The notes under the pieces were generated by a model. It saw only the letters and a list, made by a program, of their open reading frames with translations, was not told the DNA's origin and ran no database searches. From contig CBDANS010000007.1 of NCBI GenBank assembly GCA_965197745.1, positions 928,001 through 992,000 on the forward strand: DNA of 64,000 bases, written 5' to 3'. Position numbers and translations under genes: made by a program. This DNA comes from Opitutales bacterium. Its GTDB lineage: Bacteria > Verrucomicrobiota > Verrucomicrobiia > Opitutales > PNEW01. Shown here one piece after another: positions 3,411 to 60,956 of the stretch. Position 1 is the stretch's first letter; each line of letters starts with the position of its first letter.

Positions 3411-3646
3411 CAGAGCTTCGTCTTCTTCCAGCTATCTTCTTTTGTCATTGCGTGGAGCAGCGCGGTCGGTTTTCACCTCCCTCGCAATGACAATTTTATA
3501 AAAACTCTTTTTGTGTATCTTGTGCTTTTGGAATATCTAGCTTCGCTCGGTAGTGGCTAACTCTTTCTTGTGCCTTTTGTGCTTTTGTGAGATGTCGTCC
3601 CGCAAAAGCGGGACTCGGTAGTGGCTATTCCTAATCGGCAATGACC

Positions 3647-5872
3647 TCATTCAATCGTCAGTTCTTCAATGGCGATCGTGACCTCTTCGCCATCTTCGTT
3701 GGCGAAGGTGGCATCAATGCTCAGCGTGGGCTGAGGGGTGTTGTCGGACTTGAAGTTGTTCTGGGTGATCAGGGTCTCAAACCCGGTGGTTGTTGAACCA
3801 CTCTCCGCGACGACAACCGCAGCGCTATTCGTCTGCAAGAGGTCGCCACCGGTGATCCGCAACCCGGGGTTGCCCGCAGGTACCGTGAAGGATCCTTCTC
3901 CGAACAGAAGGTGTGGCACCGCGTCCCCATCGGCATCGATGTCACCCACCGTTAAGCGTACCGCGATCGGCACTCCTCGCGCATCCACGCCTACTCTTCC
4001 GGTGCTTCCACTGAACACGGTGTTCGACAGTTGCACCCCACCAAGTCCCGTCGAATTGACTACTTCCACGAGGGTCACGTCCGCTTGAGCGTCATAGACC
4101 TGTCCTTCGGGGAAGAGGGCCTGGTTAAAGGCGTTGATCCTGCCCACGGTGAAGATACTGAAGAAGGTATTGGCGTCCGCACCGTCGATGACCACGCTCG
4201 GCTTGCCCGTCACGTACTCTACGGACTGGTTGTAGCGTGGGGGAATGGCCGGGGGGAGGAAGGTGGCTGGATCCAGGGTTACGGTAAAGGTCCCGTTGCC
4301 TGAAAATTCAACTTGCACAATGTCCTCGTTTTCGTCCATGAAGGAAACGCGGGTGATCTGTCCCGGTTTGGCCTGGAGTTGAACAGACTCTCCGGTGAGT
4401 AAAATCTGGTCGAAGACATTACCGTTGGCATGCTGAATGTTTTCCCCGGCGATATCGCCTGAGCCGTCGAGAACGAGCGGCACGGAGGGCGCTGCCACGG
4501 TTATCACCGCAGTTTCACTGTCATCACTGCCGCTGGCGTTGGTTACCTGTGCCCAGTAGTTCGTGCTCGTGGTGAGTGCACCGGTAGTTAAGGTGCTGCC
4601 GGTGGCGCCGGAGACGGGTGCTGCGGTGTCACCGCTGTTGCCGGTATACCATTGGTAGGTGAGATCATCACCGCTGGCCGCTACGGTCAGGACTACCGCC
4701 GTTCCAGACTGCACCTCCTGGCTCGCGGGCTGGGTCGTGATGGATGGCCCTGTTGCGGGAGGCGGTTCACCCCCACCGCCATCTTCAAAACCGGGGGCCC
4801 CAATAGGGGTAAACCCGAAGTTGTCGATCGCCGTCGAGCTGAACAATGGATTTATAAGAACATCATCGAGTAATAGAATTGTGCCAATACCACCAGGAGC
4901 TCCTAATTCGTTAGCATCAAAAGTAAAGTGTGGAAGTCCAGATCCTGGGAGTATATTTGATCCCAGGTTATTTTCCGTTAAGAGTAAATTATCTTCAGTA
5001 TCATATACCTCAATAGTCCCATCACCTGCGCCGCTGATTGTTCGCACGACGGTTGCCGCAAAAAATTGCACCCGCGCGGCTGGTGTTTCAAAAGTGATCG
5101 TTCCGGTTTTCCCATTCACAACCCTCCAGTGACTGCGAGCTGTGCGGAATTGAAATTGTAAGTCGTCTTCGCTTTCCTGGGATACATCTCCGCCTGAAAA
5201 GGTGGCGGAAAAAGGCGATGTTCCAACCGTAATATCTTCACTGGTAGGTTGGAATTCTGAAAAAAAGGTAAATACCGTGTTATTGGAAGGACCATCAATG
5301 AGTGTGTACCCTACATCGTCGATGGATAATTTTCCGGTAACATTGAAGAACTTAAGTTCGTTCATGCCGTCATTATAGTTGAGATCAGTTAAATCCTGGA
5401 AATCTCCACTGAAGGCGACTATTCTTTGCAGCGGGGGATTGGAATCAGGGTTGATGCTGTTTGGGAAGCCGGTAAAACTTCCCTGCTGACTCAAATTAAA
5501 TACTTCTTGTCCTGTGCCCGATGTTTGACGTTGTCGAACCTCTAACTTACCCCCTCCCGCGTTTTCAGCCACGTAGAATTCGATTTCAGCAATCCCTTTT
5601 CTCGTAAAGATTTTTCCCTCCTGGCCGGGGCCCAGGGTTATTGCTTTCGTTCCTGAATGTAAAAGCGATGGATCCTCCAATGTTTCCACGGTAAACCCGA
5701 TAAATTGAATATCATTGGGTGGATCACCGAGTAAAAAGTCTACCGAACCTTCAGCGTTTTCAAAATCTAAAAAATTTTCCTGGTCTTGCGGAAGAGCTTG
5801 TAGAAGCAGAGGAAAGGACAGTGAAATTAACAATACGGATACAATACCTTTTAAGTGCATTTTGGCCCCCAA
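3647..5872 (-). CDS. Secreted protein with immunoglobulin-like domain
   Basis: Signal peptide; PSITTQPAS..LTVAASG..TYQWY..YWAQVTN Ig motif after a G/P linker. Confidence 0.8.
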   Translation of the reverse strand: MGAKMHLKGIVSVLLISLSFPLLLQALPQDQENFLDFENAEGSVDFLLGDPPNDIQFIGFTVETLEDPSLLHSGTKAITLGPGQEGKIFTRKGIAEIEFYVAENAGGGKLEVRQRQTSGTGQEVFNLSQQGSFTGFPNSINPDSNPPLQRIVAFSGDFQDLTDLNYNDGMNELKFFNVTGKLSIDDVGYTLIDGPSNNTVFTFFSEFQPTSEDITVGTSPFSATFSGGDVSQESEDDLQFQFRTARSHWRVVNGKTGTITFETPAARVQFFAATVVRTISGAGDGTIEVYDTEDNLLLTENNLGSNILPGSGLPHFTFDANELGAPGGIGTILLLDDVLINPLFSSTAIDNFGFTPIGAPGFEDGGGGEPPPATGPSITTQPASQEVQSGTAVVLTVAASGDDLTYQWYTGNSGDTAAPVSGATGSTLTTGALTTSTNYWAQVTNASGSDDSETAVITVAAPSVPLVLDGSGDIAGENIQHANGNVFDQILLTGESVQLQAKPGQITRVSFMDENEDIVQVEFSGNGTFTVTLDPATFLPPAIPPRYNQSVEYVTGKPSVVIDGADANTFFSIFTVGRINAFNQALFPEGQVYDAQADVTLVEVVNSTGLGGVQLSNTVFSGSTGRVGVDARGVPIAVRLTVGDIDADGDAVPHLLFGEGSFTVPAGNPGLRITGGDLLQTNSAAVVVAESGSTTTGFETLITQNNFKSDNTPQPTLSIDATFANEDGEEVTIAIEELTIE

Positions 5873-6046
5873 TTTGATTTAAACTTAAATTCTGATTTAT
5901 AAGACTGCTGTGATTAGACATGTAATTGTTAAATATCCAGTTTTCAACAGTTTAATTAGTTTTCAGTAAATTTATGACTTAAATTCCAAATGTTTGAAAA
6001 TGAGCTATTCGCTTTTATTGACGGTCTCAGGGTTTAATCAATGAAT

Positions 6047-6120
6047 TGAGTCATAAGTGCTTAATTATTAATATAAAGCGTTGTTTAATAATAGGTTGTT
6101 GTGGGGTGAACTTCCAACTA
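6047..6120 (-). other. Degenerate att-like remnant related to the tRNA(CAT) 3' end plus flanking arm
   Basis: cataagtgcttaattattaatataaag resembles 13149-13175; tgaacttccaacta matches tRNA tgaactcccgacca at 11/14. Confidence 0.45.
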
Positions 6121-6181
6121 ACAGTGATGGAAGTGAGGGTTTTTAAAAATGGCTTAAGAGAACAATAAATTTAAAGTAATT

Positions 6182-7297
6182 CTACCACGTTCTTGAATCC
6201 GGTACGTCAATCCAGGTGCACCCGTTGCTGATAGACTCCTGGCTGCACAGGCCAGGCAGGGTCATATCCATGGCTTCATGTATGCCTATGGGGCAGGCAA
6301 TCTTACCCTCTATGGACTCCACAAAATCGATTATCTCAAAATAGTCACCGCCGCCATGGCCTGCTTTGGCAGCTTTTTCCGACCCTTGCTTCCAGTATTC
6401 CGGAAGAAATTCCTCGGCCAAATCATCCAAATTCATCCAGCTGTTCGCGTCAGAGCAGCGCTCCCGAAGCCAGATGCGATTCACTTCACCCTTAGCGCGC
6501 GCGGACTCATAAACTCCTTCTGTCCCCTGTAACTGGTGATTGTTCATCGCGTGCGGCCGGTCGGAAAGCATGTCGACGCGTATCTTTACTAATCCACCGC
6601 TGCGCATCTTGCAGAGCATGAGACAAGAGTCCTGGTTTTCATATTCATCGCCACGGGGATCACGGTAGTGATGGCCCGATCCAGCGCAACAGACAGACTC
6701 GACTCTATCGCCCTGCATCCATTGGAGGATAGGGCCAAGGGAGTGGGTGCCGTAAGTAACACCGTCAATCCCCGTCTGCCACTTTCTTCGCCAGGTTGTT
6801 TTTTCACTCAACTCCTTAAGTTCGTGAATATACTCCCCTTCGGCGTAGTAGGGCGTGCCGAACAAGCCGGCTTTTATCAGTGAACGCACTATTACATTAG
6901 CGCGCGCATAGGTATAGTTTTCAGCCATCATGTAGACGCGCTCAGAGCTTTGACAGGTCTGCGTCAAGAGGCGGCACTCCTCGATCGAAACTCCGGCTGT
7001 CACCTCACAAAGGACATGGAGTCCCTTTTCCAATGCGGCAATACTCTGGGGAACATGAAAATGCATGGGCGAGCCAATGATCACCGCATCGAGCTCAGAC
7101 TCAGTGAGCATTTCTTCATATTGAGAATATTGCTCGGTTGCTCCGAGTCGCTCAGCTGCGGAGGGGAGTTCCTCGGTGTTGATGTCGCACACGGCGTGAA
7201 TACGGACGTTGTCGAGGGAGTCGCAAGCCTGTTTGAAACTTGCCCCTCTACCACAAGCTCCGCTTATGCCAATATTCAATTTTGTCAGTACGCTCAT
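6182..7297 (-). CDS. Gfo/Idh/MocA family oxidoreductase
   Basis: N-terminal Rossmann fold, HVLCEV motif, YMMAENY, GHGGGD. Confidence 0.9.
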   Translation of the reverse strand: MSVLTKLNIGISGACGRGASFKQACDSLDNVRIHAVCDINTEELPSAAERLGATEQYSQYEEMLTESELDAVIIGSPMHFHVPQSIAALEKGLHVLCEVTAGVSIEECRLLTQTCQSSERVYMMAENYTYARANVIVRSLIKAGLFGTPYYAEGEYIHELKELSEKTTWRRKWQTGIDGVTYGTHSLGPILQWMQGDRVESVCCAGSGHHYRDPRGDEYENQDSCLMLCKMRSGGLVKIRVDMLSDRPHAMNNHQLQGTEGVYESARAKGEVNRIWLRERCSDANSWMNLDDLAEEFLPEYWKQGSEKAAKAGHGGGDYFEIIDFVESIEGKIACPIGIHEAMDMTLPGLCSQESISNGCTWIDVPDSRTW

Positions 7298-7385
7298 GTA
7301 ATTATCTCTCTATCGAAGATGAAAATGATACAAGACTGGAATAAGCGGAGTAACTGTAATGAAGAATATCCATCGACGGGTTCCG

Positions 7386-8309
7386 TTATCTATTTTGTAA
7401 GGATTCTAAGACTCGGGCGCGCGCGAACGCCGGTTTCCAACCGTCACCGTGGTCTCCGAGTGCCCAACATCCGGACAAGACGCTGTGAGAAAGACACCAT
7501 TTGGCAATGATCCTTCGATCAACTGCGAGTGCCTCGGCTAACTGGTCGATTCGTCGAGCGAGGAACTGTTTTTGATCTAATTCAGTAGGCTGCCGTGGAG
7601 GTTCGCACACAAATACGGCAGCATCGTACAAAGGGTCGCCGACTACCCCTTTCGGATCAATGGTCAGCCAGGAATCACGTTCAGAACGGAGGATGTTTTG
7701 CGGATGAAAATCGCCGTGGATGAGTGTCTGCTCCTTAAGTGGGTCCAGAATTTCCGCGAACAGGTTTTGCGCGGTATCGATCATGTCGCAGGGAAGGGGA
7801 CCATAGTCTTGTCCGAAATGGGCTTGAACTTTGCTGAATGTACTTTTGACCCAATCGCTCACCAATGTAAAATGGTGATCTGTTGGTGCCGGTGCGCACA
7901 GCTTATGCATAACTGACACCGCGCTGCTTGTGATTTCATCGTCATCGTCGATGTCTGAGAGAAATGTTCCGGGCTGCAGTCGTTCGAGAAGCATCACACC
8001 CAAATCGGTATCCGCAGCAAGCAGTCGGGAGCTGCCATTTCCGTCAAATTCTCGAAGGGCTTCGATCTCGCTTGTCAGTTCTTCGCTCGGCACGCCTGAC
8101 TTCAGCACTACGGGCATCCCCTCTGCTGTCGTAGCCGGTGTTACATAGTTGTAATTCAGCTCCTTAAAGGGTGGTAGAAATTCCAATGACCATTTGTCCG
8201 CGCACGCCGAGATCGTTCCGCTCAGCTGATCGAGCCAGTCCCTGCCAACCTCACCGTGAACATCGATGATATTATCGGCCCACGCCCCGGTTGTGATCAC
8301 TGTCTTCAT
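7386..8309 (-). CDS. Aminoglycoside/hydroxyurea phosphotransferase (APH(6)-like kinase)
   Basis: LLERLQPG, HGDFHPQNIL and IDPKG motifs. Confidence 0.85.
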   Translation of the reverse strand: MKTVITTGAWADNIIDVHGEVGRDWLDQLSGTISACADKWSLEFLPPFKELNYNYVTPATTAEGMPVVLKSGVPSEELTSEIEALREFDGNGSSRLLAADTDLGVMLLERLQPGTFLSDIDDDDEITSSAVSVMHKLCAPAPTDHHFTLVSDWVKSTFSKVQAHFGQDYGPLPCDMIDTAQNLFAEILDPLKEQTLIHGDFHPQNILRSERDSWLTIDPKGVVGDPLYDAAVFVCEPPRQPTELDQKQFLARRIDQLAEALAVDRRIIAKWCLSHSVLSGCWALGDHGDGWKPAFARARVLESLQNR

Positions 8310-8322
8310 TGCTTCCTTAAAA

Positions 8323-9069
8323 TTAAATTATTGCGCTACGCAAATCCAAAGCTAAGTCGATCCGATCCGTGCTCAATTGATCGACTTGCAAATCAAAGGC
8401 TTTTTTCAGCTCAACTTCAGTATTACAGTCAGCCGCGTGTATCATAACTTGGGCGTCACGCAGCTGAGTCACGATCTCTTCTATGACCCTATCTGTCGGC
8501 AAATGGGCGACTGAAAATTCTCCAACTCTGAGAGTCTCTATGGTATTTCTACACCCTTGTGAAACATTATTCAAATTGGGAAAGGTATGTACAAAGAGGC
8601 CGCGACGGGTGTTTGGATCGAACTCTCGCAAACGCATTAAAAGGGGGACATGCGGAGACGTGAATTCCACGCGGGAGAGCAGGTCAGCGTCCTTGACAAT
8701 GGATAGGACCTTCTCGAGAAACTTCATGCTCAGCCCTTTCAGCTCGATCTCATATTCGATCCGTGGTCCAAACTCAGAAAGAACCTCTGACAGTAGTGGT
8801 ATCCTGGTCCCCGCGAATTCCTTCGAAAACCATGACCCTGCATCCAGCATTGAAAGCTCGTCCCAAGTGGCTTCGTGAATCGGCCCATTACCGTTGTTGG
8901 TCCTACCCAATGTGTAATCATGGTGCACCACGATTTCACCATCAGAAGACTCGTGAACGTCCAATTCTATTCGTTCAGCTCCTCGCTCTACCGCGGCTTG
9001 AAAAGACGGCAATGTATTTTCAGGATACTTTTCTCGAAATCCTCTATGGCCTGTAATCCTGGTTTTCAT
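8323..9069 (-). CDS. Glycerophosphodiester phosphodiesterase
   Basis: GHRG..PENT, ELDV, HD..L.RT motifs. Confidence 0.9.
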   Translation of the reverse strand: MKTRITGHRGFREKYPENTLPSFQAAVERGAERIELDVHESSDGEIVVHHDYTLGRTNNGNGPIHEATWDELSMLDAGSWFSKEFAGTRIPLLSEVLSEFGPRIEYEIELKGLSMKFLEKVLSIVKDADLLSRVEFTSPHVPLLMRLREFDPNTRRGLFVHTFPNLNNVSQGCRNTIETLRVGEFSVAHLPTDRVIEEIVTQLRDAQVMIHAADCNTEVELKKAFDLQVDQLSTDRIDLALDLRSAII

Positions 9070-9643
9070 TGTTACTCTTTATTCCTGCTTAATAACCAAG
9101 CATGCCTGCATAATGGACCGTAGTGGAATGATGTCAGGTGGGGCGCTTTGTCAGGCTTTCGTAATTCATAATCCATAATCTAATTATTACCCCATGGGTA
9201 ATCATAAACAATTTAATAATTATAATTGGAAGTAATTGAAAGGGGTCAGGCTCTTTCTGGTTAGCGGACGGCGATCAGAGACAAAGCGTTCCTGTCGGGC
9301 TTTGCCGAGGCAAGTCGTATGGGTTCATCCATTGGGGTACATCATCACCGGTTTGGTATCGTAGTCGGGGAAGGAGCATCGAGCCACGGTTTGCTTGATC
9401 AGACCTCGTATCTCGTACCAGTTATACGGAGACAGGTAAAACCGATTTAACCATACAATAACGAAGGAAAATATTGCCAAATCGTTATTAAAAGCAGAAA
9501 ATTGAACCCGTGAGTTCACAAGGTATTATTTTAAGCAATTATAAATGTTCATATAGCAAATCTCAGTTTGTATTTTTGTGCATCTTGTGGCCCTCTAAGT
9601 CTCGGTTATAAGTTGATGAAGAATCCTATTAACACATATAACA

Positions 9644-10501
9644 ATGATTAAGAAAACTTCCATTCTCTCCGAACCCGAAATCGAACATTTTAAAGTATTC
9701 GGTTTCATCTTACGGCGAAAAGTTTTCACCCCGGATGAAGTTCGATTAATTAATGAAGAGTTCGATAAGGGAAAAGCGTTTGCACTGTATGAGCGCGATG
9801 ACTCAGCATTTAATATCCGAGGGCAAATGAACTGGTCAAATCTGGGACCGGAATCACCTTTTCTCGCCAGTTTGTTTGAAGATGAGCGTATTTGCGGAGT
9901 GGCGGAGCAACTCTTGGGGGATGATGTCATTGGAGTTTCTTCTAACTGCAATGCTTTTGCCGGTGACCGCACCGAGTGGCATCCAGATGATGACAATCCT
10001 AATTATTATGGAGCCAAGTTTCTTATTTATCCTCAGTTTCTTAATGAAAACAGTGGAGCGTTGCGGGTAATTCCCGGATCAAACCATACGGCTTATTCGG
10101 TTGAACTGCATCGCATGGGTCTAGTTGGATCACCTCATTCAGGAGAGAGTTCTTATCTTAGTAAATCAGGGCTCGAGATTAAAGATATCCCCTGTTACGT
10201 GTGCAGAACAGAACCCGGTGATGTGATTATCTTTGACTATAAAATCTGGCATTCCACTTGGGGTGGTTCGAAGGATCGGCGAATGATCAGCTATAATTTT
10301 TCCAAAAATCCCAAGACACCTGAAGAAGAGAAATTGATGAGTGAAATGGTTGAGGTGGATCGTCAGATCAGAGAGAGCTTAAGGTCTCCGGGGCTACAAT
10401 ATTACCCAGAATGGGTTGCCAATCCGGAAGGAAATAAAAGGCGTGAACGCTGGATAAAATGGCTGCGCGAGAAAGGGGCATTCAAGGCACCGCAAAACTG
10501 A
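9644..10501 (+). CDS. Phytanoyl-CoA dioxygenase (PhyH) family protein
   Basis: WHPD, GALRVIPGS, PGDVIIF..WH motifs. Confidence 0.85.
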   Translation: MIKKTSILSEPEIEHFKVFGFILRRKVFTPDEVRLINEEFDKGKAFALYERDDSAFNIRGQMNWSNLGPESPFLASLFEDERICGVAEQLLGDDVIGVSSNCNAFAGDRTEWHPDDDNPNYYGAKFLIYPQFLNENSGALRVIPGSNHTAYSVELHRMGLVGSPHSGESSYLSKSGLEIKDIPCYVCRTEPGDVIIFDYKIWHSTWGGSKDRRMISYNFSKNPKTPEEEKLMSEMVEVDRQIRESLRSPGLQYYPEWVANPEGNKRRERWIKWLREKGAFKAPQN

Positions 10502-10598
10502 CTATTTAAATAGCACAAGCTTCAGTGTCGGAGTTATTCGCGATTAAGCGTTCCCCACAAAAAACTCCTTCTTAATAAATATTTCCTGATATAACTGT

Positions 10599-10740
10599 TG
10601 ATCGGTCCACGTTATTCGTACCACTTTTTAAGTGAGAGAGTTACCAGGTGTTAATGGTTTTAGGATTGAAGTGTATGAGAGATCTTGACGAAGTGAGGGC
10701 GTAGCCCGAACGCGGCCAAGATTTGAAAGTAATCTGACAA
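10599..10740 (-). mobile_element. IS3-family (type A) right-end remnant
   Basis: Near-identical to 37724-37865 and 51814-51955. Confidence 0.8.
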
Positions 10741-10879
10741 TGAGAACCTGGAACATCCAGAGATCTTATATCAACAAAAGATCGCTCCTTCTTCTCGTTA
10801 GATAATTGGCCTTGGATAACTTCATCCTCATAGTCGATTTTTATCTGCTCATTCATTTTTGTATCCAATTATCACTATG

Positions 10880-10997
10880 AGATAGATTAATCGTCTAAAA
10901 ATTCTCGAATCATCGTCATTAACCGCTGCCATTAATTCTGCCACTGACACGCCCAGTGCTTTGCACAGGATAAAGATCGTCTGTAGCTCGGGTCCGA
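10880..10997 (-). pseudogene. C-terminal fragment of an XRE-family HTH regulator
   Basis: Minus strand reads GPELQTIFILCKALGVSVAELMAAV; no N-terminus. Confidence 0.5.
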
Positions 10998-11705
10998 TCA
11001 GCCGGTATTTTTTTTATGCTCTTCGACGAGGGCTTTCACCATAGTCCATTTTTCTCGGGCACTGAGATCGGTACGACGGGCGATAATGCGTCCACCGGTC
11101 TCGAGTTCGCTAGTCACGCTGCAAGCTTCGACTATCTCGGTGTGATACTCGGCGGGAATCAAGTGCACTCCGTTAATATCAGCATGGAGTAGATCGCCGT
11201 GATCCACGGTAACGTCGCTGACGGTGATCGGTTCATTGGCCAGTTTGTAATTTACGGAAGCATGATCACTCATCGTGCCGGATCCATAGACGGTAAAACC
11301 TAGGTGGTTTATCGCTTCGAGGTCACGAATACCCCCATCGGCGACGAGACCGACACAACCACCTGCCTGAAACATCGCGCACATATAATCACCTGTTACG
11401 CACTCATGCGTCATTCGCGAACCCACTGATTTCATAACAATTATGGTTGGCACTTTTGAGGCCCGAATTTTTTCTTCCGCTTGCATTAAACCCTCGAGAT
11501 CTGTCTCAAGGTCCGGCGTGCTGGTATTGACAACTAAGGTCACAGCGACACCTACGATGGGATGGAGAAAGTGAGTCATCAGCTTAACATCTATGCCCAT
11601 GGTACATTTATGGTTGTCCTTGCAACCCAATAATGACAGCGATTCAGCGATAGCTGGCGTGTCATACTCACGTAATTGTTCGATCAACGCCAAGTCGACA
11701 GCCAT
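10998..11705 (-). CDS. RraA/HMG-aldolase family protein
   Basis: DTPAIAESL, GD.M, G.V.DGGIRD, DINGV motifs. Confidence 0.85.
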   Translation of the reverse strand: MAVDLALIEQLREYDTPAIAESLSLLGCKDNHKCTMGIDVKLMTHFLHPIVGVAVTLVVNTSTPDLETDLEGLMQAEEKIRASKVPTIIVMKSVGSRMTHECVTGDYMCAMFQAGGCVGLVADGGIRDLEAINHLGFTVYGSGTMSDHASVNYKLANEPITVSDVTVDHGDLLHADINGVHLIPAEYHTEIVEACSVTSELETGGRIIARRTDLSAREKWTMVKALVEEHKKNTG

Positions 11706-11760
11706 AATTCTAAGTTAATTGGATTTGCTTTAACAGATGTCAAGTACAGCTTTTTGAACC

Positions 11761-12927
11761 CTATGAGTAATTCCCTACAATAAGACTCTCGTTAGGCAGG
11801 TCGATTAATCGACGACTCCCTTTCTCCGTTATTAATATCGGGTCTTCGACGTGATAGCCCTCTCGACCTGGAAAGCCGAGGACAATTTCTACGGCAAAGA
11901 CCATTCCGGGTTCGAGCGGTTCATTCATATGAGGTCCCAGATAAGGAGATTCATGGATTTCCTGCCCGAGACTGTGACCGACCCAATTCATAGGAGTGAC
12001 CTTGTAGTAATCTCCCATTCCCCGGCGATAAATCTCATATAATTCTCGCCCTTCGACCCCAGGTTTCATGGCCTCGATGACTTGTTGATAAGCATCGAAC
12101 ATTGTTGCATAGATCGCCGTTTGCTCAGAAGACGGAGTCCCACATGCGAAAGTTCTGCCCACATCCGATTGGTAACCCTGATAGCAAACACCCATGTCAA
12201 AGCGGATTAGCTCACCGTTATGTACAGCGCAATCAGAAGGCGTAAGATGTTCAATAGCGGTTCTAACACCCGCTCCGCAGACCATGAATCCCAGTGGCGG
12301 TGCTCCCTCGAGCAAAAAGACTTCGTAAGCAACGGCTGCCAACTGCCGCTCGGTCACCCCTTCCTCCACCGCAGCCCACATCGCTTTGTACGCCTTCTCC
12401 ACAATTTGGGATGACCGGGTCAGGCGGTGAATCTCCTCCCCAGTCTTAACCTGTCGGAGGCGATTAAACACGTCGGAGGCTGCGATAAGCTGTGCATCGG
12501 GAAGATGCTTACGGATTAATTCATAGACACTCACAGGAGTATATTTCTCGTCGTAACCAATCCGGCTATTTTGAAATCCCAACTCTGAAATTTTACTCGC
12601 GAGATCGGTTTCGTGGGATCCTTCCCGGATGCTACCAGTGGCAGCATCAACAGATACACCGGCGAACTGACGAAAAGGAACAAGGTCGGTGACACTAGTC
12701 TCTTCTCGAACGGTCTCAAATTCGAAGTATGGCACAATCAGAGCGGGGTGTGCGTCTCGAGTTAAGAGAGCGAAAGTTGTATGTTCACGTTCGAACCGGT
12801 GTTCCATCATCCGGGTCACGCCACTGATATAACTGAAGTTCTCTGGTCGGCACGCGACGAGGATGTCGATGTCGGCTGCATTCAGAATCCGACGCACCCG
12901 GTCGTCGTCATATAATTGCCTTGTCAT
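11761..12927 (-). CDS. M24 family Xaa-Pro peptidase
   Basis: D.G..GYQSDVGRT, GHSLG.EIHE, E, HVED metal ligands. Confidence 0.9.
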   Translation of the reverse strand: MTRQLYDDDRVRRILNAADIDILVACRPENFSYISGVTRMMEHRFEREHTTFALLTRDAHPALIVPYFEFETVREETSVTDLVPFRQFAGVSVDAATGSIREGSHETDLASKISELGFQNSRIGYDEKYTPVSVYELIRKHLPDAQLIAASDVFNRLRQVKTGEEIHRLTRSSQIVEKAYKAMWAAVEEGVTERQLAAVAYEVFLLEGAPPLGFMVCGAGVRTAIEHLTPSDCAVHNGELIRFDMGVCYQGYQSDVGRTFACGTPSSEQTAIYATMFDAYQQVIEAMKPGVEGRELYEIYRRGMGDYYKVTPMNWVGHSLGQEIHESPYLGPHMNEPLEPGMVFAVEIVLGFPGREGYHVEDPILITEKGSRRLIDLPNESLIVGNYS

Positions 12928-13187
12928 ATTTACACTCCTAAATACTTGAGTTCAAAAACCGCAGTGGTGAATCTGATCCATCCCAGAATGGTATAACTTT
13001 GTTTTGATAATCTTTCATTCTTCTTTACCAAACAAAATTAGCTAGCAGGTTAACTGTGCTATACAGATTACACGTGAGCAACTTGGCTAAATTGCCACAA
13101 GAATATTTAAAATAGATTCAACTCAACTTATAGTAGAATAAATTGATCTATAAGTACTTAATTATTAATGTAAAGGGTTGAGAAACA

Positions 13188-13259
13188 TGGTGCCAGGGAG
13201 GAGAGTGTCAGGGCTACTCACTGGCGTTCGTGAAGAACTCCCGACAATCGGCTTATGAG
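13188..13259 (-). other. attR-like 3' fragment of tRNA(CAT) with a 28-nt insertion
   Basis: tggtgccagggaggagagt[28 nt]gaactcccgacaatcggcttatgag versus tRNA 16467-16511. Confidence 0.85.
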
Positions 13260-13293
13260 ATTACAATATTTTGGGGTCACTCCAACCCTTGGA

Positions 13294-16155
13294 TCAGAGG
13301 TCGATCCGAACTTCTTTCAGTCTAGGTGAACCACACCCATAAATCGAAATAAGTGTTGCTTTGTATTGTAACCACTGGGCGTCATTCGGTATTCCCTCAA
13401 TTGTTTTACCGGTGGTTTCATAATAAGAAGCGGTCCCCGTCGGACCCATCCAGACAGCGTCTTCAAGACCTGCTTCCGATTCGCTCCATCGGAGCTGGAA
13501 TTTTATTTTCAGAAGTTCTGTTTCTTCACTGTCCCAATGAATGCGGCGTGCTCTTCGATTCCCCAGCTCAAAGGAAGGGGATACATAGTTCTCTTCGGGC
13601 TTCCGGGTGAAAGCATTTCCCCGATCGAAGCTTGTCATCCCGTGGGGACCGAGTCCGGGGAAACCGGATACTTCATTCTTGTCAAACCCGTTAGGACTAT
13701 TCCAGTAAATCAATGAATCAACCTGGTGTCCAATATCGTTGCGATGACAGGCCAGTGCGATATCTATCCATCCGTCACGATTTAAATCCGCTTGGGTCAC
13801 CGCTCCAGCGGCATATCCGGGAAGATTGACAGGATTGTTAAAATCAATCCTTTTACCATCCCCGTAAAACAACTGTACCGGCGGAGTTCTCGATGTCGGG
13901 TTAGCATAGGCGGTCACAAGGATATCGAGGTTTTCATCGTTATTATAATCCGCGATCCCTGTAAAAACTGCGCTGTATCCAGACATCAATTCCTGAATGT
14001 TATCTTCCTGATATCCTTCAGGGCTTCCAAAATGAATACGCAATGTGTCTTTATGTCGTCTGCGGTGGCCAAGTATGCCGACAATGATATCCAGCCACCC
14101 GTCACTGTTAATATCTGCAACATTTACAGCTGCTGAATCTTCCAGGCCATGACATGGCACTTCCCATTTCCGGTCCTGGGAAAATCCTTTAGCGCTGCCG
14201 AGATATATTCGTATGAAGTTCCGCTTATCATGAAATAGGATATCAATATGGCCGTCGTTATTGACATCTCCCACGGCAGCCAGATCGCCTCTATTGTATA
14301 ATGAATCGGTTCTATTCAGAGAAAATCCGCTTGGTGACCCATAAAATATAGAAGAAGCATTATCCGGGTCATTTTCGCCGAGACTGTAACCAGCCGTAAC
14401 CGCAAGAATATCAAGATAACCATCCCGATTAAAATCGACCGCCTTCAGTTCACCATAGTCAATATCGGTAATTAAATCTATGTATTCATTCAATATCGGC
14501 CCTTTCGCGCCACCGCTGTAAATGCGAAATCCCTCCGGAATCGTAAAAACAATTTCGGGATACCCATCGCTATTCAAATCGGCAACGAAAGATACCGAAC
14601 TATGGATAGTTTGAAATTCGAGTCGATTATTCTCACTGTAATCTGCATTTTTATTACCTAGATACACATAAGAGGGTATACTATGCACATGTCCGTTAAG
14701 AACGTTATTGAAGATCACTTCCGGTTTCCCGTCTCCATCCAGGTCCCCAGCGGTGTTGCCCACGACTCCTATCGTATGCACCCAACTCGTCCGGTCCTCA
14801 GAATACCCGTCCGGTCCATTCCAATAGATAGGTGACTGGATATCGAATTCATTCTCCTTATAGTGCTTACTGATGATCAATTCCGGTAAACTATCCCCAT
14901 CGAGATCAGCTGCGGTTACCCAACGAGAGTTTTTTACTTCAATCAGTGCTTTCATCTTCTCTACGCTGTCTCCCGAACGGATCTGCACTCCGTCTGAGGT
15001 GGCAATAAGCAGGTCCGGGATACCATCATCATCTACATCAGAGATATCAGCGCGAATAACTCGCCTGCTGAATTCTGCAGAGTGACCTTCCGCTTCAATA
15101 ATCACCTGGTTCTCTACATCAATGTTACCTCCTTCATTCCAATATATGCGAACTTGAGCACTACCACAGAACGTCAAGTCGTTGCTCCCGTCCTGGTTCA
15201 GGTCCTCAAGTATAACCTGACGCGCTCCGTAAGTAGGTAAAGTGAAAGGCTCATCGGCATTTACCCCATCCGCTGTTCCCCAGAAGATTTTAGACTCCGT
15301 ATTCAAATCACTTTGACCAGTCCGGTAACTGGCCAAAACGATATCCGCATACTCATCGTTGTTCAGATCTCCTGTGGCGATACCTAAGGCACCTGTCGCG
15401 ATTATCCCATACTGCGCTCCCTCATCTTGAAAGGTGCGGTTTTCTCTTTGTATGTAGACGTGAGCTAATCGTGGTATTGCTGGATTGTGTCCATCTATCC
15501 AGGCGGAGGGGAAGAGTAAGTCGAGTTTTCCGTCATGGTTAATGTCAAGTGGCGCGACATCGAAAGCCCCAATCGTTGGAAGGTCGGTACGGCTCGCTTC
15601 CGGTCCCTCAGGACCTCCCCAATAAATATACGAGTCTAATTCCGAAGAGACTCCGTTCTGGGAGTTCACGGTCACGAGGTCATTATGTCCGTCACCATCC
15701 ACGTCGATAACCCGGCTCATCCATCCGCTATCCGCCGACATCTCGTGTCGTTTCCAATTTTCTCCCGGACCCTGATCGGTTGAATAGGCCCAGGTGGGAC
15801 CGCGTTCTATTCTATCGTGTGAATTTGCAAGGACCAGGTCTATATAACCGTCACTATTCACATCGAGGTTATTAATCATCTCAATAACACCATTGGCATT
15901 CACATAGAGATTGCTCCCCGCATTGTCGAATTGTCCTTTTGAAAAATCCTCAAACCCGTTGTGGACCCAAACCGGTTGCTCTTCCATAGCATCTGTCTCT
16001 TTCTCCTTTTTGCCCATGGAGTATAGGGGACTGCCAATAAGGAACAGCGTTACTAGTGCGTTAAGTGATGTTCGTATAGCATTCAATTTATTATAATAGT
16101 TCATGATTGATACGATTAAATATTTGGTGGATGTCGGGCTTTGCTCTCGGTACAA
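13294..16155 (-). CDS. Secreted FG-GAP/VCBS repeat protein (start probably ATG at 16104)
   Basis: DxNxDG repeats; collinear paralog of 478..3354, including the C-terminal GCGSP.LKEVRIDL. Confidence 0.85.
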   Translation of the reverse strand: MYREQSPTSTKYLIVSIMNYYNKLNAIRTSLNALVTLFLIGSPLYSMGKKEKETDAMEEQPVWVHNGFEDFSKGQFDNAGSNLYVNANGVIEMINNLDVNSDGYIDLVLANSHDRIERGPTWAYSTDQGPGENWKRHEMSADSGWMSRVIDVDGDGHNDLVTVNSQNGVSSELDSYIYWGGPEGPEASRTDLPTIGAFDVAPLDINHDGKLDLLFPSAWIDGHNPAIPRLAHVYIQRENRTFQDEGAQYGIIATGALGIATGDLNNDEYADIVLASYRTGQSDLNTESKIFWGTADGVNADEPFTLPTYGARQVILEDLNQDGSNDLTFCGSAQVRIYWNEGGNIDVENQVIIEAEGHSAEFSRRVIRADISDVDDDGIPDLLIATSDGVQIRSGDSVEKMKALIEVKNSRWVTAADLDGDSLPELIISKHYKENEFDIQSPIYWNGPDGYSEDRTSWVHTIGVVGNTAGDLDGDGKPEVIFNNVLNGHVHSIPSYVYLGNKNADYSENNRLEFQTIHSSVSFVADLNSDGYPEIVFTIPEGFRIYSGGAKGPILNEYIDLITDIDYGELKAVDFNRDGYLDILAVTAGYSLGENDPDNASSIFYGSPSGFSLNRTDSLYNRGDLAAVGDVNNDGHIDILFHDKRNFIRIYLGSAKGFSQDRKWEVPCHGLEDSAAVNVADINSDGWLDIIVGILGHRRRHKDTLRIHFGSPEGYQEDNIQELMSGYSAVFTGIADYNNDENLDILVTAYANPTSRTPPVQLFYGDGKRIDFNNPVNLPGYAAGAVTQADLNRDGWIDIALACHRNDIGHQVDSLIYWNSPNGFDKNEVSGFPGLGPHGMTSFDRGNAFTRKPEENYVSPSFELGNRRARRIHWDSEETELLKIKFQLRWSESEAGLEDAVWMGPTGTASYYETTGKTIEGIPNDAQWLQYKATLISIYGCGSPRLKEVRIDL

Positions 16156-16200
16156 ATTGATGATTGTCGATTGAATTTATCTGGAGGGACGCCTTCACTT

Positions 16201-16291
16201 AGTCAAGATCTCTCATATACATCAATCCCAAAACCCTTACCATCATGCCGGAACTAACACTGACTCTAGTAGAGTAAACGGGAGCAGGTCA
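16201..16291 (+). mobile_element. Fused IS3 remnants (type A subterminal piece + type B right end)
   Basis: agatctctcatatacatcaatc followed by gccggaactaacact..gtaaacgggagcaggtca. Confidence 0.75.
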
Positions 16292-16466
16292 GTTATAATG
16301 GTTTGGAATCTCATGAATGAAAGATGAAGATAAATTTTACAATCGCCTGTTATTACATGCTTGGTCAGGTGAAATATAACTTCTAAAAATGCCATTTATT
16401 CTAGGCCAAAACTAGTCCATTAGGAATTATAGCCTAACGATCAATAATGTAAGTTACTGCTATTCA

Positions 16467-16542
<76 letters not shown>

Positions 16543-26817: not shown

Positions 26818-26848
26818 CTTTCTCTGTGGTTAATTATTTTGGGGTGGA

Positions 26849-28339: not shown

Positions 28340-28382
28340 GGTAAAGTAAGTGCTAAAATTAAGTGCGGTAAATTAAATTACA

Positions 28383-30860: not shown

Positions 30861-30878
30861 TTGAGGTAGTGGTTCGTG

Positions 30879-31583: not shown

Positions 31584-31615
31584 GGCATTTCTTGGGTACT
31601 GGTTTCTTGAGGTAA

Positions 31616-32875: not shown

Positions 32876-32896
32876 AGTAAATATTAAATAAAAAAA

Positions 32897-51813: not shown

Positions 51814-53242
51814 TGATTGGACCCCGTTTTTCGTACCAATTATTAAGTGAGAGAGTTCCCGGGTATTAATGGTTTTAGGATTGATGTATATGAGAGATCT
51901 TGGCGAAGTGAGGGCGTAGCCCGAACGCGGCCAAGATCTGAAAGGAATCTGACAAACTCTTGTGGGCTTTTAAAGCCTAAACGACTATGAGGATGTTCAT
52001 GGTTGTAGGTCTGACGGCATTGTTCGATTACCACGTGCGCTTCAGCCACGCTGAGCAACACATCAGTGTTCAAACATGAGCGCTTCGCTATGTCGTCACT
52101 ACGTTCCTCGGTACATCGGGTAAGCGGTTGTGAAACGGTTCGATGAGACCGTTTATTATTCTCGCTATCGCTCGTTGAGGTGTCTCGCTTCGCTCGGTAG
52201 CCAGGGACTGCCCGGGTCGATATAGATCGTCTTGATGCTTTTGTCGGACAACCACTGCTGCACTTGATGAGCGATAAATGGCTTCGCATGTCGTCGCTTT
52301 GCTCCTCGGAACACTGCCATTGTCACTACGAATATAGTGGGGGGATTCCCTCTTCATCGACGGCTTCGCAGAGAACCGAGAGGACCTCGGTTGAGGTGAG
52401 CTGTCGAGCGACCCGAAGGCGCAAACATTTTCGCGTATATGTCTTCGCTTCGCTTGAGTGTAGTCGCTTTCAGATCCTCGGTACATCGATTAGGGTCATG
52501 ATTTTCAGTGAACCTCCATTATCGCTACGATCATGGATAAAGTCCCAGGACCAGACGTGATTGCGATCGGTTGCTTTAGTGGGAAGCCCAGTAGAGACCC
52601 CTTGACGGTGCCTACGCTTTTTCGGTAGCTTTACCTGCAGTCCTTCTGATCGTCGTACTGCCTGGACAAACTTCCTGCTAGTTGTCCAACCTTCCTTTAA
52701 AAGCAGGGCACGGATGCGCCGATAACCGTAACGGGAATATTCCCAGGATAAGGTCACAATCTGCTCGGCCAACCGTAGAGCTTTCCTGCTGACCTGCTTG
52801 GGCCGGTAGCTGTAGGTTGACCAACTGAGGCTGAGATAGGAACAAGCCCTCCAAAACGAGCACAGCCCCTTCTCAGCCACCTCTTTTACGGCTCGCTTCT
52901 TCTGCTTTGGCTCACCCCTTTTTTGACAGTGTTTCCTCCAATACCTGATTCTTGATCATTTGCTCAGCGAGCAGGTTTTTTAGCTCGGTATTTTCTTTTC
53001 CCAGTTCTTTAAATCACTTCGCATCGGCCAACTCCAAGTTGCCATACTTATTACCCCAGCGATAAAAGCTCTGCACGCTTAGGTTGTTCCCACCGCAGAC
53101 TTCTTGTACCGTCTTATCTGTATCGGCTTGACGCAGTATTGCGATGATCTGTTCTGTTTGTATCTTTTTCTTTGCATTGAGGTTATCTATTTATCCCCAT
53201 AACCTCTCTCGGTATATGATACCATTTTTAGTGGTCACGCCA
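51814..53242 (-). mobile_element. IS3-family element type A, inactivated by four micro-insertions and point changes
   Basis: Collinear with the 41719 copy. Confidence 0.9.
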
Positions 53243-53684
53243 AGGGGAAGTGAAAGTGGTATGAACAGCAATGTTTGTAAAATCATGGTAATCCTTGAAA
53301 AAGGTTGCGTAATGTATTCCCGGCTTGGCACATGTGATACACAACGACAACGTATAGTAAACCCGGACAATTGATTGATTTCAATATGACTCTAGACTCT
53401 ACAGCACACTTGGGCAATAAAGGAGCCCATGTCCAGTAGAAAGCTGAAGGAAACCTCCAAGCAATCCTTGACATGATGGTTCGACGTCGTGATAGGTGTC
53501 TGTACAGCAGGTTTATAGCAAGCCCGGCAATACAACCTAAAACACCTCGTTATCGCGGATAAAGCCGGGTCAGACAGCATTGTCAGGGTCCAGTTGTGAT
53601 TAAACTTGCCTCTACTGGGCGCATAAATTCATTGTTTCCAACACAAAGGTCACTTAATCGATATTATTAAATCCACACTTAAAT

Positions 53685-53852: not shown

Positions 53853-54172
53853 TCGAGTCGTTTCACAACCGATTACGCGATGTACCGAGGAACGTAGTGA
53901 CGACATAGCGAAGCGCTCATGTTTGAATCGTGAAGTGTTGCTCAGCGTAGCTGAAGCGCAAGTGGTAATCGAACAATGCTGTCAGAACTATAACCATGAA
54001 CATCCCCACAGTCGTTTAGGCTTTAAAAGCCCACAAGAGTTTATCAGATTCCTTTCCGATTTTGGCTGCGTTCGGGCTACGCCCTCATTGCATCCAAAAC
54101 TTGACTTCCTCTACCAACTTAAACCTCTCCAGACTAACTCTCCCGGTGGACCAGTTTGTGTAACCCGACCAC
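53848..54172 (+). mobile_element. IS3 type A-related 3' fragment with a variant right end
   Basis: FIESFHNRLRD..LNREVLLSVAEA; ends gtggaccagtttgtgtaacccgacca. Confidence 0.75.
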
Positions 54173-54333
54173 GACGAATACTTACCTTCGAAACATTTTA
54201 ACTTAACTGGAGATGGCTATTTTAAACATCAAAATTGAAGGTCAACGAGTAGGGTCGTAATACGCCTTTCGTCGGATTTTGGATTGCAGTAAATGTAACG
54301 TGAGATACCTCTACGCGTAAAAAGCGTTCAGAA

Positions 54334-56525: not shown

Positions 56526-56539
56526 CTCCAAGTTTTAAT

Positions 56540-56725: not shown

Positions 56726-56789
56726 TGTTGGGTATATGGATCAAAACTATGATCTAAGAACAGATAAAAATCCGTCATAAATAAAGTAA

Positions 56790-57379: not shown

Positions 57380-58257
57380 TGGAGTGACCCCAAAAAATCG
57401 TATCATTTACAGTGAGAGGTTATCCGGATAAACGGATAACCAAAATGAAAAGAAAAAGATACACAACAGAACAGATCATAGCAATACTCCGGCAAGCCGA
57501 TACCGGTAAAACGGTATCGGAAATCTGCCGTAGCAACAACGTAAGTGAACAGACCTTCTATCGCTGGGGTAATAAGTATGGCAATTTAGAACTGGCCGAT
57601 GCGAAGCGATTTAAAGAGCTGGAAAAAAAATTCACAAGCCTAAGCGAGAAAACCTGCCATACCGAGCTAAAGAAGCTGCTCGCTGATCAAATGCTCAAGA
57701 ATCAGGTGATGGAGGAAACGCTGTCAAAAAAATGGTGAGCCCAAAGCAAAATAAAGGAGTAGTAAAAGACGCGGCTGAAGGGGAGCTGTGCCCGTTGCGG
57801 GGGGGCTTATGCTTATCTCAGCCTGAGTTGGTCAATGTCCAGTTACCGGCCCAAGCTTTCCATTAGGAAAGCTCAGGGATTGTCCGACAAAAAGATCAAG
57901 GCGATATATATCGATCCGGGCAGCCCTTGGCAAAACGGTTTCATTGAGTCGTTTTACAACCGCTTACCCGATGTACCGAGGAACGTAGTGACGACATAGC
58001 GAAGCGCTCATGTTTGAACCCTGATGTGTTGCTCAGCGTGGCTGAAGCGCAAGGGGTAATCGAACAATGGCATCAGACCTACAATAATAAACATCCCCAT
58101 AGTCCTTTAGGCTTTAAAAGCCAACTGGAGTTTGTCAGATTACATTCAGATCTTGGCCACGCTTCGCATAGATCTCTCAAATACAACAATGCTGAAACCA
58201 TTAACGCCCGGTAACTCTCTCACTTAAAAAATTGGTACGAAAACCGGGGTCCGATCA
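57380..58257 (+). mobile_element. IS3 type A, internally deleted
   Basis: Both ends and orfA present; most of orfB missing. Confidence 0.88.
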
Positions 58258-58260
58258 ATT

Positions 58261-59097: not shown

Positions 59098-60328
59098 AAC
59101 TGGACCAGCGAAGATTTAGTCTGGCATGGGTGAAAAAGCTAATAAAAAATAGGAGAAAGAACCACCCATGAAAAGCAAAGGAAAACGCTATAATAAAGAA
59201 CAAATCATCAATGGCCTAAGGCAGGTTGAAGGCGGTCGAAGGATTGCCGAAGTGTGTCGAGAGTTAGGCGTGAGCGAACAGACCTACCACAGTTGGAAGG
59301 GTAAATACGCGGGCATGGGAATCAGCGAATTAAGACGGCTGAAGCAACTCGACGAAGAGAACGCCAGTTTGAAGAAGCTGGTCGCTGATCTGAGCCTGGA
59401 CAAGCATATGCGGCAGGAAGTTATCACATAAAAGTTGTAAAGCCTGTGCGCAAGAAGGCGATTGCTGAGTGGTTAGTGGAAGCTTATGAGGTGAGCAAAC
59501 GCCGGGCGTGCAGGCTGATGCAGTTGTGTTGGTCGAGTTATAACTACCAGCCTGTGAAGAATGGACGAGTTGCGCGCTGATCGTGCGCATACGAGACCTC
59601 GCCGCCGCGCGGGTGCGCTACGGGTATAGGCGAATCACGGTGTTATTAAAGCGGGAAGGCTGGACGGTAGGAAAGAAACGCGTTTATCGTATCTACAAGG
59701 CCGAAGGGCTGGAAGTGCGCACGAAGAAACGAAAGAAGCGTGCCGCGCAAAGGCGGGTCTCACTGCCCGCGGCTTCAGCAGCCCAGGAGCGCTGGTCGAT
59801 GGACTTTATGAGCGATCGGCTGACCAACGGCCGCCCCTTCCGCATTCTCACCGTTGTCGATCAATACACTCGAGCTTGCCCACTGCTTCTGGTCGATACG
59901 TCCATCGGTGGGCGCAAAGTCGCTGCCGCACTTATGAAAGCCGCCGCAGGAATCGGTCTTCCCCAAACCATTACCGTCGATAATGGGCCCGAGTTTGCCG
60001 GCAAAGTACTCGATGAGTGGGCTTATGGCCACGGCATCAAGCTGGATTTTATCCGCCCAGGCAAACCCGTAGAGAATGGTTATATTGAGAGCTTCAATGG
60101 ACGCTTACGCGATGAACTTCTTAACACCGAGCTATTTTGTACGCTGGTGCAAGCGAAAGAAAAACTTGATGCCTGGCGGCTTGATTATAATACTCAAAGA
60201 CCACACCGTTCTCTGGGCTATCGGCCTCCGGCCGAATACGCCCACAGAGCCATGTCTAAGCAAATTAAAACCCATACCACCCTGCCGGAACTAACACTGG
60301 CTCTGGTACAGTAATCGGGTGCAGGTCA
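59082..60328 (+). mobile_element. IS3-family element type B, second copy
   Basis: Same ends and ORFs as 48326..49615. Confidence 0.92.
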
Positions 60329-60380
60329 TTATCCCGATAACCTCTCTCTTTAAATGATACAATTTTTTGGGGTCACTCAA
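60329..60380 (-). mobile_element. IS3 type A left-end remnant
   Basis: Reverse complement of t.gagtgaccccaaaaa..atcatt..agagaggttatcgggataa. Confidence 0.75.
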
Positions 60381-60956
60381 TTAAATCCACCCAAAAATTC
60401 TTGGCCGATTCCTGGCCGAATATCAGCAAAAAAATATGATTCTTGCCCTTTCCTGCCAAACATTTAGAGGCAAGGACAGGAAATTAGAGGAAAATATAAA
60501 TTATTATTGTATCGTTATTTAAGTGTAACTATTTGTTATTAAGTAGCTTATAAGGCATTATTGAGTCCCGTTCATAGTCGGTTCTGTCTCATCGTCTACG
60601 TTTAAGATAGCCACTTTTGAGCCCTGCGACAGCGGGGCGACATCTTCCAAAGGCACCCGTCGTCGTCCCATTAAATTGGGACTATGCCGTGGCGAAGCAA
60701 AATTCACATAAAAGCATTTTGAGTATAAATTTTTATTCTAATTATCTACCTATTGCATAATCGTACTACTAAGCGGGCGCGACGAAGCACGTCCCTCCAG
60801 ATAAATAAAAATGGAGGGCCACGCGTTGTCGTGGCCGATTGGATTGTATTATGATAATTAATTCGTCCATCCAATCTTCCAATCTTCCCTTCTTCCATCC
60901 ACCCTTCCTTCTTGTCTCTTTTGTATCTCTTGTGCATCTTGTGGCTGTATCTTAAC

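Follow-up and report, generated by a model that had tools for sequence, protein, structure and literature searches.

Introduction

Repetitive extragenic palindromes (REPs) are high-copy stem-loops of 20-40 nt with a GTAG tag 5' of the hairpin foot and a link to REP-associated tyrosine transposases (RAYTs); the available text of PMC3733652 places them in Opitutus terrae and describes them as mostly extragenic, sometimes lying inside genes or palindromes. Here, we analyse a stretch of 64 000 nucleotides (C7:928001-992000, hereafter the window) from the genome of an uncultured Opitutales (Verrucomicrobiota) bacterium (labelled G000; 4.45 Mb, seven contigs, 45% G+C) and describe a family of a few hundred repeats of 23-45 nt each, here called units, which occur genome-wide in G000. 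The REP and small dispersed repeat (SDR) elements already described are of the same general sort.

The SDR elements of Nostoc punctiforme and relatives were reportedly characterized by Elhai and coworkers in 2008 (Genome Res 18:1484) as repeats of 21-27 nt that share a fold with compensatory changes, occur in heptamer repeats and in mini-transposons, and are nested. In the available text of PMC4390886, SDR5 of Nostoc inserts between the third and fourth bases of the highly iterated palindrome HIP1, and in that of PMC5861425 SDRs were not found outside the Nostocaceae among HIP1-rich cyanobacteria. Compared by description, the Nostoc SDR elements are the closest to the units in behaviour; they enter other repeats at precise positions.

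Insertion of IS608-type elements occurs 3' of a fixed tetra- or pentanucleotide and costs the target no base. The available text of PMC3479197 describes the chemistry of this branch of IS200/IS605 as hairpin-dependent, specific for single strands, carried out by a Y1 enzyme and free of target duplication. Rickettsia palindromic elements (RPEs) and intragenic REPs are small palindromes inside coding sequences, as far as the available text of PMC3733652 covers them.

Most REPs are located in intergenic DNA that is unique, and natural pairs of filled and empty REP sites are therefore scarce. To our knowledge, the current view of how REP-like repeats reach new positions is to a large extent deduced from biochemical work. 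The units of the Opitutales genome lie inside multi-copy carriers; a single genome therefore supplies dozens of empty references, against which each joint can be resolved to the base.

Structure and abundance of the units

The core unit opens with the head T(A/T)CCGA. A stem-loop with a G...C closing pair comes next, then the bases GACAT and a variable tail, most commonly CTTCC and with C as its last base, after which the genomic sequence resumes with A. Core units are 23, 27 or 34 nt in length and those borne by insertion sequences (ISs) 32-45 nt; the longer, composite IS-borne types share the head and hairpin, have other tails and are present in 69, 30, 11 and 13 copies. The units have no coding capacity.

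A strict pattern with 18 specified bases, TACCGAG-N5-20-CGACATCTTCC, was matched 42 times in G000 and not at all when the same pattern was reversed as a control; such a genome scan had been proposed in an earlier note on the window. The two comparison genomes from the window genome's own family, G001 (a single contig) and G002, hold 66 and 84 strict matches. A relaxed regular expression found 121 copies in G000, with interiors of 7 nt (31 copies), 11 nt (40) and 18 nt (22), and a stem was present in 96 of 478 loose matches versus nine of 217 in the reversed control. This is a real family of very small inserted repeats and not a product of chance.

The 7-nt interiors are of the type GCGNAGC, and the loops of the 96 hairpin-filtered copies are mainly GNA (GAA in 25, GCA in 19 and GTA in six). 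Both GCGNAGC and d(GNA) triloops are DNA-specific types of stable mini-hairpin in the available text of PMC13037366 and PMC3201870. GCGAAGC, named in the earlier note, accounts for one of the 31 interiors of 7 nt, next to GCGCAGC (17/31) and GCGTAGC (2/31). The stems show compensatory changes. For the 18-nt interior class the mean number of outer pairs is 3.81, versus a maximum of 3.48 over 500 shuffles; the excess in the 11-nt class is borderline. By DNA energy rules only the 34-nt units fold better than their shuffles (z of -5.5 for that at 3587-3620 and -2.9 for that at 60615-60648). A regular expression for units of the form TTCAC...CCTG(A/C)C was not enriched (28 matches versus 23 in its control), and this subfamily is therefore based on only about four filled/empty events.

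Insertion joints

Comparison of the whole genome with itself gave 394 gap positions of 15-80 nt, which merged into 309 groups, the majority within ISs. An automatic junction caller (241 events, with A or T replaced in 47, CT or AG in 47 and nothing in 22) mixed true joints with alignment artefacts, and the final joints in IS-A, an element of the IS3 family, were curated from a multiple alignment of its 34 full copies. No target duplication was present at any filled/empty site that was checked, in agreement with the earlier note. In a test for a miniature inverted-repeat transposable element the unit ends, T(A/T)CCGA and ...CTTCC, proved not to be inverted repeats.

Four sites in IS-A are polymorphic. 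At alignment column 812 the empty sequence gatg-A-atatac takes up a 43-nt unit (28 copies filled, six empty), and at column 1096 ctggc-A-aaacgg does so likewise (10 filled, 24 empty). The empty sequence is agtg-AG-ttca at column 985, where filled copies have 32 nt followed by A (32 filled, two empty), and gatg-AG-tgttt at column 1183, where they have 36 nt followed by A (eight filled, 26 empty). Filled copies read [unit]+A at all four sites. For column 985, represented in the window at 52280-52311, the empty state had earlier been given as agtg-A-att; both empty copies read agtg-AG-ttca, so that AG is exchanged for the insert plus A.

Further joints come from other carriers. An IS-A insert at 57631-57658 has 37 empty partners, which read ...gaaa-A-ataccgag. 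In a third IS, cttac-AG (or CG)-tttttttt becomes 24 nt plus A. Empty copies of IS-B read aaagg-A-aaacg, as the earlier note had it from the copy near 59168, or aaagg-C-aaacg, with C in place of A; the filled copy is at 48425-48453. In an intergenic motif beginning TAGCCAC, 15 of 17 filled members are one A shorter than empty ones, and those empty motifs that read AT would fit only if two bases were replaced by the unit plus A. In the arms of a palindrome described below, AA becomes [unit]+AT in 25 of 28 filled cases, with no net loss; a clean paralogue pair (C6:1103754 and C7:1497255) shows this exchange within otherwise near-identical DNA.

Among the 96 hairpin-filtered copies, 63 have C and 23 have G immediately 5' of the unit, and in 76 the tail is followed by A; the first base of the unit is always T, as previously claimed. 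In the most general terms, the T that begins a unit comes after C or G, an A follows the unit, and about two target bases give way to the unit plus that A. The earlier note had stated that one A is replaced at an AA step and that the loss of a single A is consistent. This holds only in part, as the special case in which the target was AA; it fails for the AG and CG targets and for the palindrome arms.

Carriers and genomic contexts

All the contexts identified are themselves repeated sequences. They comprise three IS3-type elements, the CATTGCGAGG palindrome, short-repeat tracts, TAGCCAC...GCAC motifs and a 3' fragment of tRNA-Met. The palindrome, which starts tgtCATTGCGAGG and continues ...gacgcggcAATCCAGG, occurs as single arms or inverted pairs (an example lies near 3480-3530 of the window) and is the main carrier of canonical units, with 28 filled and 70 empty-type arms; a loose regular expression for its start hits 169 places, many of which are not true members. 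The short-repeat, heptamer-like tracts are of AATC(C/G)G and AACCCTG types. A test for period-7 phase in these tracts gave nothing at strict thresholds, and a looser listing was mixed, with some tracts short of one A, some of a C and one in which AAT had become ATT. The intergenic motif (a/g)aTAGCCAC-A(A/T)-AA(A/G)GCACAA(A/G)A, with window examples at 3553-3586 and 60608-60660, was found with a unit in 17 cases and empty in 19. It is often seen upstream of genes as a short tandem array of GCAC-type repeats.

Copies that are not in IS genes lie between genes. Of 84 filtered copies, 12 fall within stop-to-stop frames of at least 200 codons; the four canonical copies placed in such frames lie 40-110 nt past the upstream stop, and no placed canonical copy is deep within a non-IS reading frame. 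One non-canonical regular-expression match 995 nt into a frame looks like chance.

Several other candidates were set aside. Indels of 20-23 nt at IS-A columns 416, 707 and 1370 and at C4:139121 and similar places, together with a 23-nt GCAT-flanked block in another IS, either are missing from a single copy or have 3-5 nt of microhomology on both sides (GCAT...GCAT, for example); they look like ordinary single-copy deletions and were excluded from the family. An apparent strand bias of the units on the G001 chromosome, judged by eye, was dropped because orientation follows the carrier arms. Contig joins around 3450-3690 of the window have short sides (20-33) within repeats and were not used.

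Units in the window

All nine inserts listed in the earlier note are present at the coordinates and on the strands given there, and seven further copies were added, starting at 16126, 37988, 42774, 52078, 52155, 53883 and 57974. Three of the nine lie within intergenic TAGCCAC motifs. A 23-nt unit, TACCGAGCGAAGC...ATTCC, at 3530-3552 (minus strand) and the 34-nt unit with a 7-bp stem at 3587-3620 (minus) are in TAGCCAC...AAAAGCAC motifs, and the 34-nt unit at 60615-60648 (plus), which has a degenerate TTTTGAG head, is in a TAGCCAC...AAAGGCAC motif. A 27-nt canonical unit at 16126-16152 (minus), one of the additions, occupies an AATC-type short-repeat tract.

Three units are of the TTCAC type. 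One of 29 nt at 48425-48453 (plus) lies near the start of IS-B orfA, and one of 28 nt at 57631-57658 (plus) is in an IS-A fragment. The third, also of 28 nt, at 13207-13234 (minus), is at the T-loop position of a tRNA-Met sequence. The intact tRNA-Met at 16467-16541 (or 16470-16541; minus), which supplies the empty reference, reads ...GGGAGTTCAACTCTCC..., and the copy at about 13190-13250 (minus) reads gggagttc[28 nt]actctcc. The insertion into a T-loop sequence thus stands as earlier described; the host copy is only a 3' fragment of the tRNA-Met gene, with no working tRNA. In an Rfam search of the window at gathering thresholds, tRNA was the sole match.

The remaining units are mainly those of IS-A. 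The 43-nt type-3 unit at 42690-42732 (plus) lies in orfB at the site that reads ctggc-A-aaacgg in 24 empty copies; it is followed at 42774-42809 (plus) by a 36-nt type-4 unit, whose empty partners read gatg-AG-tgttt in 25 of 26 cases and gatg-ga-tattt in one. The IS-A copy at 51814-53243 holds four units on the minus strand: a 36-nt type-4 unit at 52078-52113, a 45-nt type-3 unit at 52155-52199 with T as its final base, a 32-nt type-1 unit at 52280-52311, which splits the SDNGSEF codons of orfB (empty state gAGttc), and a 43-nt type-2 unit at 52441-52483 in orfB, with an in-frame TGA in the clade representative. Type-4 units of 36 nt were also placed by pattern match at 37988-38023 (minus), within a degenerate IS-A copy, and at 53883-53918 and 57974-58009 (both plus).

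We compared the window with Logan contigs assembled from public runs of the same strain: X1, X2 and X5, which come from three studies, and X6. The contigs of X1, X2 and X5 span 12574-13503 with no differences, and the insert at 13207-13234 is therefore not an assembly artefact.

Effect on IS-A and history of its copies

IS-A is about 1.35-1.43 kb in length. None of its 34 full copies (for example C7:1329363, C5:57887 and window 51814-53243) has an intact orfB, and each carries at least one unit there. The 43-nt unit 1 keeps the frame (+42) and brings a TGA. The 32-nt unit 2 interrupts the empty sequence ...S D N G S E F... (ggc agt gAG ttc), where it replaces AG and shifts the frame by +1; when it is excised alone or together with the A, gA-ttc or g-ttc results and the SDNGSEF frame is not restored. 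Units that lie in IS-A thus break the frame of its transposase gene.

IS-A includes two clades, with 15 and nine near-identical copies, and every one of these copies carries units 1 and 2. Between the clades, orfA and three segments of orfB have dS values of 0.13-0.90 and dN/dS of 0.09-0.15. Unit 1 is identical (0/43 differences) between flanks that differ at eight of 60 and 14 of 60 positions; unit 2 is also identical (0/32) and sits at the edge of a 3' third that is about 4% divergent, against 14-20% in the rest of the element. As the units are identical while their flanks have diverged, they are younger than the clade split or have been copied between clades, and the mosaic structure shows that conversion between IS-A clades happens. 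The 24 copies with a broken transposase gene may have been helped in trans by a copy that has since been lost, may have been filled once the burst was over, or may owe their units to conversion.

Taxonomic distribution

The strict pattern was found in 14 of 401 Opitutales genomes, belonging to 10 of 133 genera, with high counts (42, 66 and 84) only in the window genome's family; the reversed control gave one match over the same 401 genomes. In a phylum-level sample of 151 genomes, one of the 124 from outside the order held a single match. The nearest records to a window protein are metagenome-assembled genomes of Opitutales and Opitutaceae, with a best identity of 75%. Orthologous empty sites could not be recovered between G001 and G002, in which genes are syntenic at 85-95% identity and the intergenic DNA is too rearranged to align. 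In one pair of segments of these two genomes, which belong to the same genus (G001:C1:1980000-1999999 and G002:C2:1421804-1438346), the intergenic DNA is a mosaic of other short repeats, for example GTGTCCCTTCGACTTCGCTCAGG... and GTGAACA tracts.

Comparison with described elements

The units share with REPs their size, a high-copy hairpin, short tails and a conserved tag next to the stem, as well as the C|T 5' joint (63/96) and the presence of a RAYT-like gene in element-rich genomes. They differ in the tag itself: the stem is preceded by (C)TACCGA, and GTA(G) can be read only from the other strand, where it lies 3' of the stem and three bases off; its G is a flanking base outside the insert that is present in 63 of the 96 copies. 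They also have a conserved 10-nt tail and stems that go down to 2 bp (GCGNAGC), and a REPtron arrangement was not seen in G000, G001 or G002. Filled and empty joints with loss of target bases were not found described for REPs in the available text of PMC3733652 and PMC3479197. The comparison with the GTAG REPs of O. terrae is by description.

With the SDR elements, going by their reported features, the units have in common the core lengths of 23, 27 and 34 nt, the compensatory stems, and residence in heptamer-like tracts and in a palindromic mini-repeat (28 filled arms). The host, by contrast, is of another phylum, the Opitutales being Verrucomicrobiota, and G000 is not HIP1-rich (100 copies versus about 136 expected). 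IS200/IS605 elements likewise lack a target duplication, but the units share only C or G at position -1, lose about two target bases, encode nothing and have one hairpin rather than two ends. RPEs and intragenic REPs are reported as in-frame additions that leave the protein open, whereas the units bring a stop or a frameshift and only transposase genes are hit.

Candidate enzyme and proposed mechanism

The earlier note had placed the responsible enzyme outside the window, and none is encoded within it. Matches to Y1_Tnp (PF01797), the domain of tyrosine enzymes of the HUH (histidine-hydrophobic-histidine) type, occur in all six pattern holders among 61 relatives. A RAYT-like Y1 gene is present in G000, G001, G002, G015 and G040, and is intact in G001; its product of about 330 residues has NF047646 (REP-associated tyrosine transposase) as its best NCBIfam model, at 63 bits. 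Genome G040 has 46 Y1_Tnp matches and many RAYT-like genes of 300-410 codons and 95-99% identity, clustered on C1 near 1.35-1.41 and 2.65-2.80 Mb, which indicates that the gene family itself was amplified there.

We consider that there is about an even chance that the units are REP/SDR-like non-autonomous repeats which are moved as single-stranded DNA by a Y1 (HUH) enzyme and are amplified mainly by their carriers. A RAYT-type enzyme would nick single-stranded DNA at C|T and stay bound to the 5' T of the unit, which would then be joined to the free 3'-OH of another single strand, usually after C or G. Closure on the 3' side would cost the target about two nucleotides; from that cost it would follow that AA, AG or CG is replaced by [unit]+A with no duplication. 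Most copies would stem from multiplication of the carriers (IS-A, the palindrome and the short-repeat tracts) and not from separate insertions, and units are probably also spread by gene conversion between carrier copies. The anatomy, joints, distribution and carriers of the units are direct observations, and the enzyme, the single-stranded intermediate and the sequence of cleavages are inferences.

The IS-A clades of 15 and nine copies that all carry the same two units support such hitch-hiking, and the 5' joint at C|T in 63 of 96 copies fits a HUH enzyme. The available text of PMC3479197 reports that TnpA-REP of E. coli acts on single-stranded DNA, needs GTAG and cuts between C and T, and that any 3'-OH could then resolve the covalent link. 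The single-stranded HUH-type system of the earlier note thus gains from the C|T joint, the GNA loops, the absence of a reverse-transcriptase match and the RAYT-like gene in three genomes of one family, and loses from the state of that gene in G000 and the failure to find it in another unit-bearing genome, to which we now turn.

A number of observations weigh against movement by a RAYT-like enzyme. The 3' joint, with C before A and two target bases lost, has no counterpart in the C|T rule as given in the available text of PMC3479197, and the units do not have the defining GTAG of REPs 5' of their hairpin. The TTCAC units and the IS-borne units of 32-43 nt have no significant predicted fold when DNA energy rules are applied to them and to shuffles. 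The number of independent contexts is about 14, and true de novo insertions may be few because each carrier has its own tail subtype. The score of the RAYT-like protein is below the NCBIfam cut-off (63 versus 80 bits), and Y1_Tnp is common anyway, with matches in 30 of the 61 relatives. The sole Y1 gene of G000 (C6:162763-163745) carries one frameshift, which a comparison with the G001 protein (93-95% identical) places between residues 150 and 152; this may be a pseudogene or an assembly error. Units flanking a RAYT or Y1 gene, a search for which had been proposed in the earlier note, were not seen: the RAYT-like genes of G000, G001 (three loci) and G002 have no unit closer than about 1.5-2.5 kb. 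In G040 three of about 17 RAYT-like copies have a unit within about 80 nt, inside a separate 197-nt insertion. The RAYT-like protein was unmatched at E <= 1e-10 in G385, which holds nine units, and was not found in G063 either. Finally, contigs of runs X1, X2, X5 and X6 show no empty allele or indel at the unit sites.

Alternative explanations

The units may instead be mostly immobile now, a few old insertions having been spread passively by carrier transposition and gene conversion, with the altered joint bases as linked polymorphisms. We hold this to be unlikely, while giving it real weight: every context found is a repeat, each carrier site has its own tail subtype, and the AT adjacent to the unit in 25 of 28 palindrome arms is also present in four of 70 empty arms. 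The mosaic IS-A clades show that conversion occurs, the only Y1 gene of G000 is frameshifted, and there is no empty/filled polymorphism in the runs of the three studies. Against this, at least about 14 unrelated contexts, among them the SDNGSEF motif of the transposase and the tRNA fragment, need non-homologous entry, and at least 10 Opitutales genera share the 18 specified bases of the strict pattern. The identity of unit 1 between diverged flanks would also need a conversion tract barely longer than the unit.

That identity would be explained by a more specific proposal, which we regard as doubtful: an undescribed cut-and-replace form of HUH transposition of single-stranded DNA, in which a nick at C|T frees a module of at most 45 nt for ligation to the 3'-OH of the target, sealing of the 3' side costs two nucleotides and the subtype tail helps to choose the target. 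Guidance by the tail would account for the identical 43-nt unit at the same codon in two IS-A clades with flanks 13-23% different. If the proposal were true, the units would be micro-elements that selectively disable transposase genes, either as parasites of parasites or as an IS brake tamed by the host.

Movement through an RNA copy and reverse transcription, with the target losses due to imprecise target-primed synthesis, seems very improbable. Some target-primed retroelements commonly delete a little of the target and leave no duplication, an RNA intermediate is said to have been suggested by Elhai in 2008 for the SDR elements, and the intergenic copies are likely to be transcribed. However, the reverse-transcriptase model RVT_1 (PF00078), the one Pfam model used for this purpose, was unmatched in G000, in single-contig G001 with its 66 copies and in G002 with its 84, and the C-G-closed GNA triloops and GCGNAGC are stable as DNA, unlike the usual RNA tetraloops.

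That the units in IS-A are removed from the message or bypassed by the ribosome, so that transposase is still made, would explain the multiplication of 24 interrupted copies, all 34 full copies being interrupted in orfB despite the two near-identical clades and the dN/dS of 0.09-0.15, but can be put aside as hardly credible, given the in-frame TGA of unit 1 and the +1 shift from unit 2, the failure of unit 2 removal, with or without the A, to restore the SDNGSEF frame, the lack of matching take-off and landing codons and of any placed canonical copy deep inside a non-IS frame, and a purifying selection that can predate the units because these are identical while their flanks have diverged.

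Other features of the window

Contigs of X1, X2 and X5 join position 6078 to 16478, skipping 10 399 bases and with 24 other letters between. The right edge of the skipped segment is at the 3' end of tRNA-Met, beside an integrase gene (16796-18082), and the tRNA 3' fragment is inside. The segment may be an island present in only some cells or strains; the indication is weak, the short side of the joint being 27. An APH(6)/hydroxyurea-kinase-like phosphotransferase (PF04655, E = 5e-41) is encoded at 7386-8309, in the midst of ordinary metabolic genes, and no mobile element adjoins its gene. At 24346-35611, three successive genes for MacB-like duplicated FtsX permeases (823-904 residues) accompany genes for an ABC ATPase, a HlyD-type adaptor and an outer-membrane factor. 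A sigma-54 activator gene is present in G000; this, the lack of HIP1 enrichment and the Opitutales relatives led to the rejection of a cyanobacterial origin.

Biological implications

The joints define a concrete substrate and a concrete product with which a RAYT-like enzyme could be tested. SDR-like mobile repeats of very small size occur outside the cyanobacteria, and they can inactivate insertion sequences.

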